In this document: positions 22,833 to 40,414 of the stretch, piece by piece
Layout of the letters: each line of letters opens with the position of its first letter
Numbering within the stretch: the stretch's first letter is position 1
From: Escherichia phage UAB_Phi78
Sequence record: GU595417
DNA length: 43,984 nucleotides
Direction: 5' to 3' (one strand)
Position numbers and translations under genes: made by a program
The notes under the pieces: model-generated
What the model saw: only the letters and a program-made list of their open reading frames with translations
What the model was told of the DNA's origin: nothing
Database searches by the model: none

Positions 22833-22853
22833 ATTTAGGTGACACTATAGAAG
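22833..22853 (+). promoter_or_regulatory. SP6-type phage promoter (consensus)
   Basis: Exact atttaggtgacactatagaag. Confidence 0.9.
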
Positions 22854-22901
22854 GGAGGTACGCCTCCCTAACATATCAACTTGATTTATAAGGAGATTCT
22901 G

Positions 22902-34500: not shown

Positions 34501-35321
34501 GACTCAAGCAACATTTGATGGGTGAGCGGGAGCTACCTAAGCGTGACCTTGAAGAAGTCGGTTTGGATGAGGCTACCATGAAGCGACTCAAGCGCCACTT
34601 TGATGAGAACCCGATGTATGCCGACTATAATGGTGAGAAGATTCGAATGATGAATTTTGACGCTATGGAGCCAGACTTACGAGAAACCGTAGGTGTGGCA
34701 GTACGCCGTATGTCAGGTCGTCTTATTCAGCGTAACTTCATTGGCGATGAAGGTATCTGGATGAATAAGTGGTGGGGTAAGGCTCTTACTCAGTTTAAAT
34801 CATTCTCTATTGTGTCTATTGAGAAACAGCTTATTCACGACTTGCGTGGTGATAAGATTCAGGCAGCACAGATTATGGCATGGTCTTCCTTGCTGGGCTT
34901 TGCATCATACGCTACACAGATGCAGATGCAGGCAATTGGACGAGAAGACCGAGACAAGTTCTTACGGGAGAAGTTTGATACACAGAACATCGCTATGGGT
35001 GTATTCAATAAACTTCCACAAGTAGCTGGCTTTGGCCTAGCTGGAGATGCCTTGGCAACATTCGGCCTTATGCCTGACTCCATGATGCAGGCACCGGGTC
35101 GTATGGGCTTCCGCCAGCAAGGATTTGGCGACTTGGTGGCTGGTGCTGGTGTCATAAGTGATGCTGTGAACTTGTCACAGGCTTTAGTGAAGTACGCCAA
35201 TGGGGACGACGATGTTTCCACTAGGCAGTTAGTAGATAAGGTACGACGTCTTGTGCCTTTGGCAAATACGATTGGTGTAGGTCAGATGACCAAGGCCAGC
35301 GTAGACTTATTGGAGGACTGA
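31509..35321 (+). CDS. internal virion protein (large, T7 gp16-class)
   Basis: 1270 aa; TAAGGAGGT RBS; position equivalent to T7 gp16. Confidence 0.8.
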   Translation: MADDISQSWVTVSQRRLPPTFAQVAEAERKLEEQRANDKVMQTALESEWALYGGQRAIERHTTEFAEQEGYTVPESTKDELSKIHGFEIAQDIVKDVKSPEELQFRMSNAMADKERSEILARNGFTGFSAQLAAGILDPVGWAASMVAAPVAGAVKVARVGRIIKTAAVAGAENAALEAILASGDYQKGADDVLAAAGFGMIMGGTIGAATRERIARKPGVQGVNDGAEAVVDDLDTVVKGADEFDASAAKAVREAMEYDAYMAVRSYEPLKAKEVDMDVAILSHLDDLKANSSVRMSASEKGKLKEQIRQLEAEAATMKGKKVDAVAEAAAAKGAPKSAADRLDLDVKKKALARRFDEPLADIQTRLDELNAKLARVENVGKSKEELKRFSSLTREQQIKELGLDAPARKVEMTSAVREALAAIRAEKKKTPTQAHAEAKAQAEEEVRQKRDDSIGAKRVEDSEIAGEQFDLSDSMEDLMDDLAREAYQSEVRPVNLKGLGSVSSVILNSKNPVFRGLGLRLLENAQGGAYQGKTASILSNVYGNLIRFAEKNRYNDGFSQFIKDNNLRAVDYLNPAVTRDFNNQIYTAIVKGIPDDTPRGVKLAAEGIADKLAKSLEIRKAAGEKGFEDVKSARDYIPVIYDGIKVTEAVNRLGSSEAVIALLSKGYQTGKYKMGKKAADALAKVQYIRASDSTLSSRVAFDRVVSQQQQAQLIEDLKKAGVPDNIIDNFIEGTELQEMAESVSNRAKASMGINTQAEYGGMKVQDLLNTNVGELAENYGKEAAGGAALAAMGFPTRQSVLNAIDAAERAGRNMAGADAKAIKQLRAESEMLRDSVKLIYGNTIDADPNAGIVRGTRRVREITGLLRLGQMGFAQVPELARAITKMGVGTVLKSIPATKFLRSRAGRKGGTAQGELLEPELREMEELIGYIGEDNWLSGWNVRHDEFGETADNMGRLSAIIDNGLAMGSRINTWLSGFKAIQGGSEKIVARSINKRLKQHLMGERELPKRDLEEVGLDEATMKRLKRHFDENPMYADYNGEKIRMMNFDAMEPDLRETVGVAVRRMSGRLIQRNFIGDEGIWMNKWWGKALTQFKSFSIVSIEKQLIHDLRGDKIQAAQIMAWSSLLGFASYATQMQMQAIGREDRDKFLREKFDTQNIAMGVFNKLPQVAGFGLAGDALATFGLMPDSMMQAPGRMGFRQQGFGDLVAGAGVISDAVNLSQALVKYANGDDDVSTRQLVDKVRRLVPLANTIGVGQMTKASVDLLED

Positions 35322-36280
35322 TGAGTTATACTTTCACAGAACACACAGCGGTAGGTTCTCAGACGACTTATCCGTTTAGCTTTGCTGGTCGCGACAAGGG
35401 TTACATTCGCGCATCAGATATTATTGTGGAAGTGTTTCATGAAGGAGAGTGGAGTATTACACATGGTTGGGTGCTATCTGGCACCCACCAGATTACCTTC
35501 AATGTAGCACTACCAGAAGGGACTAAGTTCCGCATACGTCGAGATGTAGCCAAAGAGTACCCTTACGCGGAGTTTGATAGAGGTGTGGCTCTTGATATGA
35601 AATCATTGAACAACTCCTTCATTCATATCTTGCAGATCACACAGGAGATTCTTGATGGCTTCTATCCAGAAGGTTACTTCGTCAAACAGAATGTATCTTG
35701 GGGCGGGTACAAGATTACCGACCTAGCTGATGGCACAGACCCTCACGATGCAGTGAACAAAGGTCAGCTTGACGCAATAGACAGGAAGCACACTGAGTGG
35801 AATGAACAGCAAGATATTGCAATTGCTGGACTCAAGGCAGGTATGACATCAGGCATCTCTCACCGAACAGTGCCTTGGGTTACGGTAGCGGCTGGTGGAG
35901 AGCAAGTCATTAGACCACCTTACATCTTTGAATCGGCCTTGGTTTTCCTTGATGGAGTGTTGCAGCATGAACTGTCAGGTGCAGTTACTATAGCTAACAG
36001 CACTCTCACTTTCTCCGAGCCACTACGTCGTGGCACAGAAGTGTATGTATTGATAGGTAGTCGTATTGCAACATCTTCACCGGGTCTGCATATGGAGTTC
36101 AACAAGGACTTAGATGCAGGAACTACGGAGGTTAGGATTGGTATGGCGTTCTCCCATATTGATATCTACCTTGATGGCCTGTTCCAACCTAAGTCAACTT
36201 ATCAAATAAACGGCGATCTTGTTACATTCTCCGAGGGTGTACCAGCTTGCCATATGTCAGCGGATGTAGTCACTTTATAG
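35321..36280 (+). CDS. tail fibre/tailspike adaptor protein (T7 gp17 N-terminal-domain-like)
   Basis: 319 aa; start overlaps the upstream stop; sits where the tail-fibre gene lies in T7, but is too short to be a fibre itself. Confidence 0.7.
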   Translation: MSYTFTEHTAVGSQTTYPFSFAGRDKGYIRASDIIVEVFHEGEWSITHGWVLSGTHQITFNVALPEGTKFRIRRDVAKEYPYAEFDRGVALDMKSLNNSFIHILQITQEILDGFYPEGYFVKQNVSWGGYKITDLADGTDPHDAVNKGQLDAIDRKHTEWNEQQDIAIAGLKAGMTSGISHRTVPWVTVAAGGEQVIRPPYIFESALVFLDGVLQHELSGAVTIANSTLTFSEPLRRGTEVYVLIGSRIATSSPGLHMEFNKDLDAGTTEVRIGMAFSHIDIYLDGLFQPKSTYQINGDLVTFSEGVPACHMSADVVTL

Positions 36281-36288
36281 GAGGTAAG

Positions 36289-36483
36289 ATGGTTGATTCC
36301 GAACTGGTTAGCGGCGGGATGAAGTTAGCGCCATCTGCCTTAGTCTCAGGTGGGTACTTCCTCGGCATCAGTTGGGACAATTGGGTACTGATTGCGACAT
36401 TCATTTATACTGTGTTGCAAATCGGCGATTGGTTCTACAGCAAATACTCGTTATGTAAGGAGAAGAAACGTGGCAAGTCATAA
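36289..36483 (+). CDS. putative holin (single transmembrane segment, 64 aa)
   Basis: ATG 36289 with TAGGAGGTAAG RBS; one transmembrane segment ISWDNWVLIATFIYTVLQIGDWFY and a basic C-terminus; same position as T7 gp17.5. Confidence 0.55.
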   Translation: MVDSELVSGGMKLAPSALVSGGYFLGISWDNWVLIATFIYTVLQIGDWFYSKYSLCKEKKRGKS

Positions 36484-36769
36484 CAAACACGCCGCTACGG
36501 AAGATGAGGTAGGTAAGCTACATAGTGCTATCACCAATCTTTTCAACAAGAAAGCTGCTGCAATCCTCGCTGCGGTAGAGGAAGACCCTGATGCAGCAAT
36601 TGCGCTGGTGTCAGGTAAGGACATGGGTGCCATGTGTAAGTGGGTGCTAGATAATGGCATTACGGCTACACCTGCTGCACAGCAGGAAGAGTCTGCACTG
36701 TCTAAGCGCCTTGCTAAGATCAAAGCAGCATCTCAAGGTAAAGTAATCCAATTTGCTAAGGAGGCTTAA
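36470..36769 (+). CDS. terminase small subunit (candidate)
   Basis: GTG 36470, 7 nt after AAGGAG; about 100 aa; lies immediately upstream of and coupled to the large terminase, as for T7 gp18. The track ORF begins upstream at 36392. Confidence 0.5.
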   Translation: MASHNKHAATEDEVGKLHSAITNLFNKKAAAILAAVEEDPDAAIALVSGKDMGAMCKWVLDNGITATPAAQQEESALSKRLAKIKAASQGKVIQFAKEA

Positions 36770-38667
36770 TGGCTAGAGCAAGGGAGTCACAAGCTGAAGC
36801 CCTTGCCCGTTGGGAAGCCCTGCATGAGTTACAGCAAACTTTTCCGTACACTGTAGCAGGGTTACTCTCATTTGCTCAGGTTGTAATTAATACTTTAATC
36901 ACTGGCAACCCAGACCTGAACCGGGTACAAGCGGATATTCTGAAATTCCTCTTTGGAGGGAACAAATACCGGATGGTAGAGGCACAGCGTGGTCAGGCTA
37001 AGACAACCATTGCAGCTATCTACGCTGCGTTCCGTATCATCCACGAGCCACATAAACGTATCATGATTGTGTCTCAGACAGCGAAGCGAGCAGAAGAAAT
37101 CGCCGGGTGGGTTATCAAAATATTCCGTGGTCTGGACTTCTTGGAGTTCATGTTGCCTGATATCTACGCAGGTGACAAGGCTAGTATAAAAGGCTTTGAA
37201 ATCCACTACACATTGCGTGGTAGCGACAAGTCTCCATCCGTTGCTTGCTACTCTATTGAAGCAGGTATGCAGGGTGCGCGTGCAGATATCATCTTGGCGG
37301 ATGACGTAGAGTCGTTGCAGAACTCTCGTACTGCCGCAGGTCGTGCTCTCTTAGAAGACCTTACCAAGGAATTTGAATCAATCAACCAGTTCGGTGATAT
37401 CATCTACTTGGGGACACCTCAAAGCGTAAACTCCATATACAACAACCTCCCGGCACGTGGTTATCAGATTCGCATCTGGCCCGGTCGCTATCCTACACTA
37501 GAGCAGGAGGCTTGCTATGGAGACTTCCTAGCGCCGATGATTCGTCAGGATATGATTGATGACCCAAGCCTACGCTCCGGCTACGGCATCGACGGTACAC
37601 AAGGCGCACCGACCTGTCCTGAAATGTACGATGACGAGAAGCTCATTGAGAAGGAAATCTCTCAGGGTACAGCTAAGTTCCAGTTGCAGTTCATGCTGAA
37701 CACACGTTTGATGGATGCCGACCGCTATCCTCTTCGTCTTAATCAGCTTATCTTGATGAGCTTTGGTACTGACGTAGTGCCGGAGATGCCGACTTGGAGT
37801 AACGACTCGGTAAACCTTATCAGCGACGCGCCGCGCTTCGGGAACAAGCCCACAGACTACCTGTATCGGCCTGTGCCGCGTCCGTATGAGTGGCGGCCTA
37901 TTCAGCGTCGGCTGATGTATATCGACCCGGCAGGTGGCGGTAAGAACGGCGACGAGACGGGCGTAGCCATTGTGTTCCTGCTGGGAACCTTTATCTACGT
38001 CTACAAAGTCTTCGGCGTACCGGGCGGATACTCCGAATCGGCCCTCAGTCGCATTGTGAGAGAGGCAAAGCAGGCGGAGGTAAAAGAGGTCTTCATAGAG
38101 AAGAACTTCGGTCATGGTGCGTTTGAGGCGGTAATTAAGCCATACTTCGAACGTGAGTGGCCTGCCGAGTTGAAAGAAGATTACGCCACTGGTCAGAAAG
38201 AGGCCCGCATCATTGAGACGCTGGAGCCGCTTATGTCCGCACACCGCATCATCTTCAATGCCGAGATGATCAAGCAGGATGTCGATAGCGTCCAGCACTA
38301 CCCTCTTGAGATTCGCATGAGCTACAGCCTGTTTGCTCAGATGTCGAACATAACCCTTGAGAAAGGATGCCTGCGGCACGATGACCGCTTAGACGCGCTG
38401 TATGGCGCTATACGGCAATTAACCTCTCAGATAGACTATGACGAGGCTAACCGGATAAATCGTCTCAGGGCGAAGGAGATGCGCGAATATCTGGAGATGA
38501 TGACCGACCCTCTACGTCGCCGGGAGTTCTTCACAGGACAAGACCACGGTTATCGAAAACAAGTGAACACGTCAGTGGCAATGCAGCGCCGAGTCTACGG
38601 AAATGCGCCGACGATGAGAATCAAGTCTCGAAATACTCTTTCTTCAAGAATATCAAGGACTTGGTAA
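36769..38667 (+). CDS. terminase large subunit
   Basis: 632 aa; AAGGAGG RBS; size and position equivalent to T7 gp19. The 269-aa antisense ORF inside it is discounted. Confidence 0.9.
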   Translation: MARARESQAEALARWEALHELQQTFPYTVAGLLSFAQVVINTLITGNPDLNRVQADILKFLFGGNKYRMVEAQRGQAKTTIAAIYAAFRIIHEPHKRIMIVSQTAKRAEEIAGWVIKIFRGLDFLEFMLPDIYAGDKASIKGFEIHYTLRGSDKSPSVACYSIEAGMQGARADIILADDVESLQNSRTAAGRALLEDLTKEFESINQFGDIIYLGTPQSVNSIYNNLPARGYQIRIWPGRYPTLEQEACYGDFLAPMIRQDMIDDPSLRSGYGIDGTQGAPTCPEMYDDEKLIEKEISQGTAKFQLQFMLNTRLMDADRYPLRLNQLILMSFGTDVVPEMPTWSNDSVNLISDAPRFGNKPTDYLYRPVPRPYEWRPIQRRLMYIDPAGGGKNGDETGVAIVFLLGTFIYVYKVFGVPGGYSESALSRIVREAKQAEVKEVFIEKNFGHGAFEAVIKPYFEREWPAELKEDYATGQKEARIIETLEPLMSAHRIIFNAEMIKQDVDSVQHYPLEIRMSYSLFAQMSNITLEKGCLRHDDRLDALYGAIRQLTSQIDYDEANRINRLRAKEMREYLEMMTDPLRRREFFTGQDHGYRKQVNTSVAMQRRVYGNAPTMRIKSRNTLSSRISRTW

Positions 38668-38686
38668 TTAGGGGACACTATAGGAG
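38666..38686 (+). promoter_or_regulatory. SP6-type phage promoter (variant)
   Basis: aattaggggacactataggag, directly after the terminase stop. Confidence 0.75.
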
Positions 38687-38757
38687 GAGGCCCAGAGAAT
38701 AAGAGAAATAACAAGGATAATATAGGTTAACCTAGGTTATATAGGTTACTATAGTAT

Positions 38758-38777
38758 GGGTGTACTCCTGTACACCC
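38758..38777 (+). other. perfect leader hairpin
   Basis: gggtgtac-tcct-gtacaccc: 8-bp perfect stem in the 5' leader downstream of the promoter at 38666. Confidence 0.6.
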
Positions 38778-38819
38778 TATTCCTTACTTCCTTACTATAC
38801 TTACATAATAGGAGAGAGA

Positions 38820-39095
38820 ATGTCTAATAGCTATAGTACACAACCTCTTACAGGTAAGTCTGCTCGTAAGCAGGTACAACCTGTGAGTGAAGCACTAATG
38901 CTTCCTGTAATCTCAAAAGAGGAGGCTAGTAAGAAAAGCAATGTTATTAATGATGCCACCAAATCAGGCAAACAGAAAGGAGCCATGGTGTGTCTTGACT
39001 CATCTGGTGCATTAAGTATTGCTATTGCAGTTGATGACAAAGAAGATTCTAATTGGCTGTCCGTTACAGCGGGCACTTCTATTACCCCAGCTTAA
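38820..39095 (+). CDS. hypothetical small protein, paralogue A (about 92 aa)
   Basis: ATG 38820 with AGGAGAGAGAA RBS; shares SGKQKGAM......G....IAIA with the next gene. Confidence 0.6.
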   Translation: MSNSYSTQPLTGKSARKQVQPVSEALMLPVISKEEASKKSNVINDATKSGKQKGAMVCLDSSGALSIAIAVDDKEDSNWLSVTAGTSITPA

Positions 39096-39110
39096 GAAGA
39101 GGAGGATTAC

Positions 39111-39398
39111 ATGGCTAAATATGGTGAAGGTTCTGTTACTGGTCAGGCTTTTCGAGTAAAGGCAGTACAAACTATTGCAACGGCAATCCCCATGCCTGTT
39201 GTTGCTGAAGCAGACCTTAAGAAGAAAGATCACCCTATCAACATTAAACACCTATCTGGTAAGCAGAAGGGTGCGATGATTGCTGTTGAGAAAGAAGGCC
39301 CAACCCTGTATATTGCTATTGCACGTGGTAGTGAACCTACTGACCCTTGGGATACAACCACTATGGAGGGAGACCCTGTCACTCCAACAGGGGACTAA
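39111..39398 (+). CDS. hypothetical small protein, paralogue B (95 aa)
   Basis: AGAGGAGGA RBS; paralogous to the upstream gene. Confidence 0.65.
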   Translation: MAKYGEGSVTGQAFRVKAVQTIATAIPMPVVAEADLKKKDHPINIKHLSGKQKGAMIAVEKEGPTLYIAIARGSEPTDPWDTTTMEGDPVTPTGD

Positions 39399-39400
39399 TA

Positions 39401-39745
39401 ATGCTTAACAAGTACTTCAAGCGTAAAGAGTTCGCTTGCCGTTGTGGATGCGGCACATCCACTGTTGATGCTGAATTACTACAGGTAGTCACAGATGTGC
39501 GTGAGCACTTTGGTGCTCCTGTGGTTATCACTTCTGGGCATCGCTGTGCTAAGCACAACTTAAATGTTGGTGGCGCTCGTGGCTCCAAGCATCTGCTTGG
39601 CATTGCTGCTGACATTAACGTGAAGGGTGTATCTCCTATACGGGTGCGAGAGTACCTATGCAATAAGTATCCTGACAAGTACGGCATTGGTGCTTACACG
39701 AACTTCACACACATCGATGTGCGCTCTAACAAGGCTAGGTGGTAA
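39401..39745 (+). CDS. endolysin, zinc peptidase M15 family
   Basis: SGHRCAKHN...GSKH...AADI...THIDVR zinc-binding His/Asp pattern of M15 peptidases; ATG 39401 (the track starts at 39347). Confidence 0.8.
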   Translation: MLNKYFKRKEFACRCGCGTSTVDAELLQVVTDVREHFGAPVVITSGHRCAKHNLNVGGARGSKHLLGIAADINVKGVSPIRVREYLCNKYPDKYGIGAYTNFTHIDVRSNKARW

Positions 39746-39882
39746 TGAAGGGTTGCATTGCATACTGTGAGCGTAAGGTAAAGGAGGCCAGTGAAGCTGG
39801 AAACTACACTGACTTCCAGAACTATACGCACCTTCTGAACGAATGGAAAGTGAGGGCTGGTTGTGAAACTGTTAAAGAGTAA
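39745..39882 (+). CDS. hypothetical small protein (45 aa)
   Basis: ATG overlaps the endolysin stop (TAATG); below the track cutoff. Confidence 0.3.
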   Translation: MKGCIAYCERKVKEASEAGNYTDFQNYTHLLNEWKVRAGCETVKE

Positions 39883-40009
39883 GAAGGTAGTAGCAGCACT
39901 GGTAGGTTTGGTGGTAGCGTTGGTTTCTGTCGGCATGGGTGTTGAGTTTGGCGCTCAGACTGCCGATGCAGTTACCAGTGTTGTCTGCCAAGCCGTAGGC
40001 TGTGAATAA
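39863..40009 (+). CDS. small membrane peptide (48 aa)
   Basis: GTG start 6 nt after GAGGG; a basic N-terminus followed by a hydrophobic segment (VVAALVGLVVALVSVGMGV). Confidence 0.3.
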   Translation: MKLLKSKKVVAALVGLVVALVSVGMGVEFGAQTADAVTSVVCQAVGCE

Positions 40010-40211
40010 ACTTCTTAAGGTGCTGGCAGGTCTACTTGGCCTGCTGGTTGCCTACAAGCGAGAACAAGAGCAGAAGGAGGCTCAACGTGAAGCGAATCAT
40101 GCTAGCGACAATCCTGCTGATTGGTTCGCTGATCACTTCCGGGTGCGGGACGGCGTTACCAGAACGCCCAACCAAGCCGACGCTGACGGCAGTGTACGAG
40201 GTGGACGATAA
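40002..40211 (+). CDS. putative i-spanin (Rz-like)
   Basis: N-terminal transmembrane segment LLKVLAGLLGLLVAY followed by a charged region; GTG start overlaps the upstream stop. Confidence 0.5.
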   Translation: MNKLLKVLAGLLGLLVAYKREQEQKEAQREANHASDNPADWFADHFRVRDGVTRTPNQADADGSVRGGR

Positions 40212-40284
40212 GGTCTGCTTCAGCAAGCCTGATGCTACACAACTTGGACTGTACATTTTATCGCTAGAACGCGGCTACAATTAA
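40086..40284 (+). CDS. putative o-spanin (Rz1-like lipoprotein) overlapping the i-spanin in the +1 frame
   Basis: GTG 40086, 7 nt after AAGGAGG; KRIMLATILLIGSLITSGC signal peptide with lipobox-like SGC, then a Pro-rich mature part. Confidence 0.5.
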
Positions 40285-40313
40285 TACATAGTCTTATGTA
40301 TCATACACCTACG

Positions 40314-40334
40314 ATTTAGGTGACACTATAGAAG
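40314..40334 (+). promoter_or_regulatory. SP6-type phage promoter (consensus)
   Basis: Exact atttaggtgacactatagaag upstream of the tailspike genes. Confidence 0.9.
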
Positions 40335-40414
40335 AGAAGTATAGTGCCGTTCTTTTGAGCGGCCTATTACTCACCAGTCTTCATGGGGATGGCTGGATAT
40401 TAATAGGAGGTTTA

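Follow-up and report, generated by a model that had tools for sequence, protein, structure and literature searches.

The lysis genes of Escherichia phage UAB_Phi78 lie between positions 36,289 and 40,284 of sequence record GU595417, whose 43,984 nucleotides were analysed at full length and are called the window below. We propose that these genes make up a late SP6-like lysis set in which a 69-aa protein (p69) and an overlapping outer-membrane (OM) lipoprotein are the two spanin subunits, that is, the inner-membrane (i-spanin) and outer-membrane (o-spanin) partners, and in which a 48-aa membrane peptide (p48) is a separate factor. As an explanation of the whole, this is the best that we have found and we consider it reasonably probable. 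The gene set is ordinary: it has already been catalogued for the SP6 group, and every component belongs to a known family. What is added here is a correction of its annotation, in which a 69/73-aa open reading frame (ORF) starting with GTG is the proposed partner of the lipoprotein, p48 is probably the counterpart of T7 gp19.5, and the proposed spanin is unusually small, with a marginal anchor. Such a correction matters because the names "holin", "i-spanin" and "o-spanin" are inconsistently assigned across SpaninDB, GenBank AY288927.2 (and UniRef) and the RefSeq/PHROG-type names, and the conserved 69/73-aa gene is often unannotated or mislabelled "o-spanin".

Distribution of p69, the lipoprotein and p48

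Homologues were found by local unfiltered tblastn and profile searches, and the three genes were surveyed in 40 non-identical relatives, among them SP6, K1-5, Proteus PM93, the Gajwadongvirus phages ECBP5 and PP99, Klebsiella S16a and RCIP0053, Erwinia VL73 and metagenomic contigs. The ORFs for p48, p69 and the lipoprotein are intact in 40/40 of these relatives, with the same coupling and overlap. p48 and p69 share 8 nt (GTGAATAA), 4 nt or 1 nt where the first gene stops and the second starts; in the window, the GTG of p69 lies inside GTGAATAA, which overlaps the p48 stop codon. The lipoprotein gene in turn overlaps p69 in a different frame, by 125 nt in the window and by 101-140 nt across the 40 relatives. 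p69 is thus adjacent to and co-inherited with the o-spanin, and the two occur together in three cassette types, including cassettes without p48. Scans of IMG/VR with the lipoprotein and 48-aa alignments returned mostly the same phage group again.

The components dissociate in both directions. In Vibrio contigs and phages (L109, L111 and PVP-XSN, L049), the cassette runs from an Amidase_3 endolysin through a 76/77-aa protein with two transmembrane (TM) segments and a phrog_9219 protein of 58 aa (E 3.7e-18) to a phrog_8971 lipoprotein. Locus L108 has the order 78-aa two-TM protein, overlapped phrog_9219/phrog_8971 pair and endolysin-like protein. No p48-like gene was found in the cassettes of L049, L109, L111 or L108. 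Conversely, in Pectobacterium phage PP1 (L026) and in L112 and L113, a Cys-less phrog_4712 peptide, of the same family as p48, lies directly 3' of the M15 endolysin gene and is followed by a tail gene or an HNH gene, and no p69 or lipoprotein homologue was found in these three. This double dissociation indicates that p69 and the lipoprotein form a module that moves among unrelated holin/endolysin backgrounds, as spanin pairs do, and that p48 is lineage-specific, its presence being independent of the pair. Collectively, the comparative evidence favours p69, and not p48, as the putative partner of the lipoprotein across the SP6 group.

The PP1-like phages, which lack a recognisable spanin pair, carry a conserved 38-aa lipoprotein precursor directly 5' of the M15 endolysin gene (L026, 2319-2489; L112, 2529-2645; L113, 790-906). 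Its mature form would be ~22 aa long and follows the pattern C[VI][IV]V.DS..V....D..YK[VI]G[LI].

Each candidate partner was also modelled with AlphaFold2 (AF2) as a linker fusion to the mature lipoprotein. The p69 fusion gave a predicted TM-score (pTM) of 0.47, with p69 helices at residues 2-36 and 38-45 and a disordered tail, and the lipoprotein domain was predicted as a hairpin plus a helix, with a predicted local distance difference test score (pLDDT) of 85-90. For the p48 fusion, the pTM was 0.31, the lipoprotein domain had a pLDDT of ~80, and the mean pLDDT went from 59 down to 40 over the five models. The fusions lend weak support to p69 over p48 as the partner; the runs returned no contacts, so no interface is claimed. 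A Foldseek search of the PDB with the fused model found no match.

Frame-specific selection in the small genes

To assess selection, the pooled Nei-Gojobori ratio of nonsynonymous to synonymous substitution rates (dN/dS) in a gene's own frame was compared with that in the other frames of the same DNA. For p45, a 45-aa ORF 3' of the endolysin gene, the own-frame value is 0.17 (other frames, 1.25-1.5), and for p48 it is 0.21 (0.9-2.0). The non-overlapping codons 4-28 of p69 give 0.28 (1.0-3.8), and the non-overlapping C-terminus of the lipoprotein gives 0.09-0.10 (1.05-2.6). The small ORFs are therefore real genes under frame-specific purifying selection. All the ORFs listed in a preliminary description of this DNA, made from the letters alone, are present on the plus strand and conserved.

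Within the p69/lipoprotein overlap, constraint is partitioned between the two frames. Codons 29-52 of p69 have a dN/dS of 0.31-0.35, against 0.85-0.91 for this DNA in the frame of the lipoprotein signal peptide. Over the p69 tail the relation is reversed: the p69 frame gives 1.3, and the identical DNA in the lipoprotein frame gives 0.37. This partition places the functional part of p69 in residues 1-52. In one locus, L024, the 49-aa peptide and the N-terminus of p69 are of the K1-5 type, but the lipoprotein linker variant and the truncated 61-aa p69 tail are those of L013-L016, a mosaic that points to recombination inside the overlapping gene pair.

The lipoprotein

The preliminary description had an o-spanin gene of lipoprotein type at 40086-40284. 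The gene, its overlap with p69 and its lipoprotein signal all hold, but the start lies at 40087, and the frame read from 40086 runs into stop codons. The protein matches phrog_8971, labelled "Rz-like spanin", at E 1.9e-34. Its signal reads MKRIMLATILLIGSLITSG|C followed by G, with the lipobox ITSG|C and a +2 residue compatible with sorting to the OM. In most family members the lipobox reads TSG or ISG, and Asp never occurs at +2. The mature form has 46 aa in the window and 41-58 aa across the family, and combines a linker rich in Pro and Lys with a conserved C-terminal domain (DATxLGLYILSLERGY); one extra Cys is present in the mature form of 66/67 members.

The gene lies in the lysis cluster and is the last one before the tailspike promoter. 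Moreover, Kongari 2018 lists an o-spanin family in SpaninDB that consists of K1-5, K1E, SP6 and UAB_phi78 (PMC6139136). As a predicted o-spanin, the protein would take part in OM disruption and bind the i-spanin. Against T7 gp18.7, the similarity is confined to the lipoprotein signal.

p69

p69 matches phrog_9219 at E 4.5e-29. It begins with a short hydrophobic or amphipathic N-terminal helix, which is followed by a charged helix rich in Lys and Glu, a near-invariant motif (AQxEA(D/N)..NPxDWFxDHF(R)V) and an unconstrained tail (residues 53-69). Among 5.8 billion proteins the family comprises 127 clusters, all of 56-77 aa and none with a Pfam domain, and its members are mostly on contigs of 44-46 kb. 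Any cysteine at all occurs in only 3/120 members. A profile comparison of the family with T7 gp18.5 gave no homology (hhalign Prob 0.3%).

Positions 6 and 13 of p69 (K6 and G13 in the window) covary in charge, with E..R in 37 sequences, K/R..D in 6 and E..G in 45, counts in which kinship is not controlled. Such i/i+7 covariance is a hint that the helices pair or oligomerise instead of serving simply as an anchor.

p48 and T7 gp19.5

The 48-aa ORF had been described as a membrane peptide, and hydropathy agrees, with a strong TM segment of 19 residues. p48 has four N-terminal Lys, this single transmembrane domain (TMD) and a C-terminal tail of ~20 aa with C42 and C47. Its calculated insertion energy over 19 residues is -0.8 kcal/mol in the window, and the p48 values run from -0.8 to -2.2 kcal/mol. 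It matches phrog_4712, labelled "holin", at E 9e-16, and when 1.8 billion representatives were searched exhaustively with its profile, 29 peptides resembling it, 45-67 aa long, were retrieved. By hydropathy, p48 has the N-in/C-out TMD of an i-spanin; the ~20 residues that follow the TMD fall short of an i-spanin periplasmic domain. Nor is the peptide co-inherited with the o-spanin, as it occurs without the lipoprotein in PP1, L112 and L113 and is missing beside it in L049, L108, L109 and L111.

Based on several comparisons, p48 is probably the counterpart of T7 gp19.5 (MFRLLLNLLRHRVTYRFLVVLCAALGYASLTGDLSSLESVVCSILTCSD), which has 49 aa, a basic N-terminus, a single TMD and C42/C47 and is encoded downstream of terL. 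The Cys positions are the same in the two peptides (window, VTSVVC42QAVGC47E; K1-5, VTDVVCQVITCE). When profiles built from 67 p48 and 12 gp19.5 sequences were aligned by hhalign, the result was Prob 76.8% and E 2.1e-5, with 30 columns in register. Furthermore, the p48 and gp19.5 hidden Markov models (HMMs) are reciprocal top non-self matches in a local collection of 6470 stop-to-stop segments; one direction gives E-values of 0.002-0.07, the reverse 0.3-8. The models of the gp19.5 family are phrog_2193 and Pfam DUF5465.

T7 carries full-size Rz/Rz1 proteins (18.5/18.7; 143 and 83 aa) besides gp19.5, which implies that a gp19.5-type peptide is not the i-spanin in T7. Deletion of the T7 holin gene 17.5 delayed lysis by only 2.8 min, compensatory evolution of the holin-deletion phage produced the gene 19.5 changes A24D and E38G, and a 19.5 deletion that also removed the M hairpin gave late lysis (PMC2680503). 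In an independent passage experiment, the same A24D and E38G were recovered, and 19.5 mRNA was up-regulated (PMC8365609). By probable homology, p48 is a candidate lysis-timing or holin-accessory factor, in keeping with the earlier suggestion of a possible role as second holin, antiholin or lysis regulator.

Cys co-occurrence prompted the idea that a disulfide joins p48 to the lipoprotein, which is unsupported: the L108 lipoprotein retains its mid-domain Cys without p48, and the Cys loss in the examined PP1-like p48 peptides may reflect a single clade. The Cys-less p48 members that were checked may all belong to one such clade.

Holin, endolysin and the split layout

The window holin matches PF10746 (Phage_holin_2_2) at E 6.5e-31, with 106.3 bits (cutoff 25.4) over residues 4-59, and phrog_920, labelled "holin", at E 1e-23. 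BLASTP against a T7 gp17.5 sequence that did not come from the fetched record gave 47% identity over 30 aa. The preliminary description had placed a holin-like gene between the tail adaptor and the terminase, and the family match and the T7-like position bear this out: the gene lies between the tail-fibre/adaptor gene and terS, which is the position of T7 gene 17.5, and 2.9 kb from the endolysin gene.

That separation had been described as a split lysis system. The distance and the layout stand, but the arrangement is not a special one, since the fetched T7 order matches (tail fibre 17, holin 17.5, terS 18, Rz/Rz1-like 18.5/18.7, terL 19, 19.5); the split layout is therefore the normal, ancestral order of the T7 supergroup and not peculiar to UAB_Phi78.

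The endolysin matches PF08291 at E 9e-33, with 113 bits (cutoff 23.2), and phrog_894, labelled "endolysin", at E 2e-42. The SP6-like relatives L001-L026 share its motifs SGHRC, AADI and THID. Its Kyte-Doolittle mean over 19 residues peaks at 0.85, which leaves the protein without a TM-like segment, and it begins with a polar N-terminus (MLNKYFKRKEFACRC). Lacking a hydrophobic segment, the enzyme is of the canonical type, with neither a signal peptide nor a signal-arrest-release (SAR) domain. The family match and the hydropathy thus agree with the earlier description of an M15 endolysin without a signal peptide. The simple hydropathy analysis that gave this result also yielded the strong TMD of p48, and the signal check as a whole matched what had been expected of the endolysin, p48 and the lipoprotein. 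A sequence search of the PDB with the endolysin detected no solved structure. The signal-less enzyme may depend on the distant holin, as had been suggested; the homologous T7 holin is dispensable for lysis (PMC2680503). Relatives of this endolysin with 41-46% identity also occur in L029-L040, on contigs of microvirus-like size (~4.3-6 kb) that come mostly from one metagenome.

p45, which had been noted as a 45-aa ORF downstream of the endolysin gene, is indeed present there and matches phrog_1312 at E 7e-14. A tblastn search with the window p45 found it in only 24/40 of the trio genomes, namely the close SP6/K1-5-type relatives and Proteus PM93; the more divergent relatives have small Cys-containing ORFs at this position that the search missed. 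In L019 and L022, both otherwise intact, the p45 homologue is broken by in-frame stops, so that p45 is either dispensable or affected there by sequencing errors. In the distant relative L110, the ORF at the p45 position carries Pfam DUF8272. A role for p45 as a disruptin-like cationic peptide was ruled out, as the protein is charge-neutral (7 K+R, 7 D+E) and not amphipathic.

Proposed mechanism and its alternatives

In the mechanism that we favour, the T7-family holin would, judging from its family membership, permeabilise the inner membrane, and the signal-less cytoplasmic M15 peptidase would then reach and cleave the murein. p69 and the overlapping lipoprotein would act as an unusually small two-component module of the spanin type. 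The lipoprotein would be sorted to the OM, and p69 would act from the inner-membrane side via its short N-terminal helix and engage the C-terminal hairpin-helix domain of the lipoprotein, probably via the invariant NPxDWFxDHF motif. With ~35 residues of p69 and 46-50 residues of the mature lipoprotein, the periplasmic reach would be short. For so short a pair, engagement would probably follow only after murein degradation had brought the membranes close, whereupon the OM would be disrupted. p48 would be a separate type-II peptide, not the i-spanin, and would tune the timing of permeabilisation as a second holin or an accessory factor. If this is correct, the phage offers an unusually small spanin pair for testing how much periplasm-spanning structure OM disruption needs. 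It would also link an SP6-group peptide to T7 gene 19.5, an unexplained candidate for holin-independent lysis timing, and make the timing question of gene 19.5 testable in a second phage group.

A bolder version, which we hold to be speculative and rather improbable, regards the SP6-group spanin as a minimal trans-acting fusogen and p48 as the second timing factor of holin type that has long been sought in the T7 supergroup. Here p69 would not be inserted beforehand; its amphipathic, oligomerising helix would reach the envelope at or after holin triggering, and its NPxDWFxDHF motif would dock on the 30-residue hairpin-helix of the lipoprotein, with no pre-assembled complex threading the murein.

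A number of observations weigh against the favoured assignment, and most of them concern the anchor of p69. Membrane localisation is an eligibility criterion for i-spanins in Kongari 2018 (PMC6139136). Within the p69 helix, the longest run lacking K, R, D, E, Q, N, H and P is 6-13 residues in nearly all members, and only 6 in 51/124 sequences, as in MIKALLEVLAILLRAIERK. The hydrophobic run of the window p69 is 12-15 residues long, its calculated insertion energy is +0.6 kcal/mol if 15 residues are summed and +8 if 19 are, and several relatives have +3 to +7 kcal/mol over 15 residues. A basic cluster stands C-terminal to the helix, which by the positive-inside rule would leave the conserved motif in the cytoplasm. 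Only ~35 conserved residues lie beyond the anchor, compared with the 143 aa of T7 gp18.5, and p69 and the lipoprotein together are so much shorter than Rz/Rz1 that bridging an intact periplasm is implausible. The marginal N-terminal anchor makes "i-spanin" still a functional proposal for p69. In the preliminary description, p69 was i-spanin-like; its coordinates and its listing in Kongari 2018 support this, but the N-terminal helix is only a marginal membrane anchor.

Other points concern p48. This peptide has a robust N-in/C-out anchor, as i-spanins do, and its Cys pair is present in every examined lineage with the lipoprotein and missing from the examined PP1-like lineage without it. Its homology to gp19.5 is not proven at an hhalign probability of ~77%. 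The K1-5 homologue of p48, the sole p48 member scanned at E<=1, gave no DUF5465 match, T7 gp19.5 matches phrog_4712 at E 0.03 only, and the exhaustive p48 profile search returned no gp19.5-type sequences at E<=1e-3. Finally, literature searches turned up no experiments on any of these SP6-group proteins.

These observations can be arranged in other ways. p48 could itself be the i-spanin, in a "separated" arrangement with p69 as an accessory or unrelated protein. It is so named in SpaninDB for K1-5, K1E and SP6, as gene 56 of AY288927.2 and in the CPT annotation of Proteus phage Premi; it has the strong type-II TMD and two periplasmic Cys, and it always adjoins the p69/lipoprotein pair in SP6-like genomes. 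However, the SpaninDB curators themselves flagged the p48-type peptide as "too small?" and noted its mere ~20 periplasmic residues, and the supposed 77-bp gap between it and the o-spanin is occupied by the conserved 69/73-aa GTG ORF. p48 homologues also occur in PP1-like phages without the lipoprotein, the lipoprotein and the 69-aa family occur without p48 in two other cassette types, and T7 encodes full-size Rz/Rz1 alongside a probable counterpart of p48. We therefore judge this arrangement quite unlikely. Joining all three proteins into one spanin, with p48 as the anchor, p69 as the connector and the lipoprotein as the OM subunit, would turn the marginal helix of p69 from a difficulty into an expectation. 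It would suit a trio that is intact and translationally coupled in 40/40 SP6-like and Gajwadongvirus-type genomes (p48/p69 overlaps of 8, 4 and 1 nt), as well as a p48 Cys pair that is present wherever the lipoprotein is and missing in the PP1-like lineage. Yet the p69/lipoprotein pair does without p48 in L049, L108, L109 and L111, p48 does without the pair in PP1-like phages, p69 is essentially Cys-free, and the AF2 fusion of p48 to the lipoprotein is poor and unstable. A three-component spanin is thus unlikely as well.

p69 might instead be no spanin subunit at all but a cytoplasmic or peripheral regulator, for example of holin triggering, with the lipoprotein acting alone or in another role such as superinfection exclusion. 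The amphipathic helix whose i/i+7 charges covary in sign (E..R and K/R..D pairs), the K/R cluster after it, a combined length of p69 and lipoprotein too short for the periplasm and the lack of detectable homology to T7 gp18.5 would all fit a protein of this kind. What makes such a role very unlikely in our judgement is that the p69 family is co-inherited with the lipoprotein in at least three unrelated holin/endolysin backgrounds, always directly upstream of it or overlapping it, which is the spanin position. Moreover, the conserved part of the lipoprotein appears to be a small folded domain and not of the receptor-blocking type.

Comparison with known systems

The assignment of p69 and the lipoprotein as a spanin pair can be set beside three known systems. 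Like the window, T7 has a PF10746 holin gene between the tail-fibre gene and terS, late lysis genes scattered among the packaging genes, and a ~49-aa peptide with a single TMD and C42/C47 encoded downstream of terL. It differs in that its endolysin is the gp3.5 amidase (PMC2680503), whereas the M15 peptidase of the window is encoded beside the spanins. The T7 spanins (143 and 83 aa) are embedded and lie between terS and terL; those of the window (69 and 65 aa) are overlapped and come after terL, and no homology between the two pairs was detectable.

In lambda, Rz/Rz1 similarly comprises an OM lipoprotein and an overlapping partner in another frame at the distal end of the lysis cluster, and the single extra Cys of the mature lipoprotein is likewise shared. 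In contrast, the partner in the window has ~35 conserved residues past a marginal anchor, no long coiled-coil and no Cys; the pair is overlapped rather than embedded, and is probably too short for pre-assembly across the murein.

The Gajwadongvirus phages ECBP5 and PP99 share the gene trio of the window: the peptide has 49 aa there, the p69 homologue and the lipoprotein have 69 aa each, and the tailspike gene comes next. In the fetched loci, the annotated lysin is of the lysozyme/transglycosylase type and not an M15 peptidase; the 69-aa gene starts with ATG, and E7 and R14 stand in the N-terminal helix of its product. A SAR-type endolysin has been shown experimentally for the related phage KBNP1315 (PMC4640515).

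Annotation history

The genome paper of UAB_Phi78 reported a putative holin and an M15 peptidase, and stated that SP6, K1E, K1-5 and UAB_Phi78 have no counterpart of T7 gp18.5, which is termed an endolysin there (PMC4837284). Kongari 2018 later listed an overlapped pair for UAB_Phi78, a 69-aa i-spanin (OIS) and a 61-aa o-spanin (OOS) with a 110 bp overlap (PMC6139136). For K1-5, K1E and SP6, SpaninDB names a 49-aa peptide as the i-spanin of a "separated" pair and flags it "too small?" (PMC6139136); in these entries a 72/73-aa ORF with a GTG start went unrecognised, whereas the UAB_Phi78 entry has both ORFs found here. The comparative data indicate that the UAB_Phi78-type assignment would apply to the whole SP6 group.

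Sequence records carry the same inconsistency. In GenBank AY288927.2 (SP6), gene 56, of 49 aa, is labelled "i-spanin"; the CPT annotation of Proteus phage Premi treats a 47-aa peptide as the i-spanin and leaves a 65-aa ORF unannotated; and RefSeq records call the p48-type peptide "holin". The ORF in the 69-aa frame of AY288927.2 (L043 1137-1334; SP6 39607-39804) is labelled "o-spanin" although it has no lipobox, a label that UniRef also carries (P0081). The true SP6 lipoprotein ORF (39670-39880) is unannotated in that record.

Gene order, promoters and neighbouring genes

Salmonella phage vB_SenAt-pSL2 (Autographiviridae, Molineuxvirinae, Zindervirus UAB78) matches the whole of 36200-40400 at 98.9% identity, which identifies the window phage as an SP6-like podovirus. 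Related sequence occurs in 123 phage records, with Escherichia, Klebsiella, Salmonella and other hosts, and the IMG/VR contig IMGVR_UViG_2595698432_000001 has the same sequence as the window. The features are collected in Table 1.

Table 1. Genes and promoters of the UAB_Phi78 lysis region and its surroundings (positions in the window).
Feature	Coordinates	Strand	Start and upstream signal	Family or match
Nearest upstream phage promoter	22833-22855	+		1 mismatch
Tail-fibre/adaptor gene	35321-36280	
T7-family (gp17.5-type) holin, 64 aa	36289-36483	+	ATG; GGAGG 5 nt upstream	PF10746, phrog_920
terS (small terminase)	36470-36769	
terL (large terminase)	36769-38667	
Endolysin, 114 aa, Peptidase_M15_3	39401-39745	+		PF08291, phrog_894
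p45, 45 aa, soluble, Cys-containing (N-terminal CxxxC)	39745-39882	+		phrog_1312 (unknown function)
p48, 48-aa type-II membrane peptide	39863-40009	+	GTG; GAGGG upstream	phrog_4712
p69, 69 aa, putative i-spanin	40002-40211	+	GTG	phrog_9219 (unknown function)
Predicted o-spanin, 65-aa OM lipoprotein precursor	40087-40284	+	GTG; AGGAGG 7 nt upstream	phrog_8971
Consensus SP6 promoter for the tailspike gene	40314-40336	+		Exact match to ATTTAGGTGACACTATAGAAGAG; 3' boundary of the lysis cluster

A scan of the window for SP6-type promoters gave 6 matches, against 0 expected by chance, and none between 22833 and 40314. One late transcript, which the promoter at 22833-22855 would drive, therefore probably carries the holin and terminase genes together with the endolysin cluster. 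Sigma-70 and terminator scans for a second promoter inside the cluster gave nothing exceeding chance. An 8-bp GC-rich hairpin (GGGTGTAC-TCCT-GTACACCC) lies at 38758-38777, 3' of terL and 5' of a pair of phrog_2725 genes; it could be a terminator-like or RNA-processing site, in a scan that overall was not above chance.

The two phrog_2725 genes (38820-39095 and 39111-39398) are tandem paralogues that encode 91 and 95 aa and have in common the motif HP(I/V)N..SGKQKGAM; PP1 has three copies (L026 1489-2361). The public label of this family is "acetyl-CoA acetyltransferase", and the proteins are much too small for a thiolase. In L112 (1738-2520), a 260-aa version is fused to collagen-like G-x-x repeats, which suggests that the phrog_2725 proteins are structural or surface proteins and that the label is wrong.

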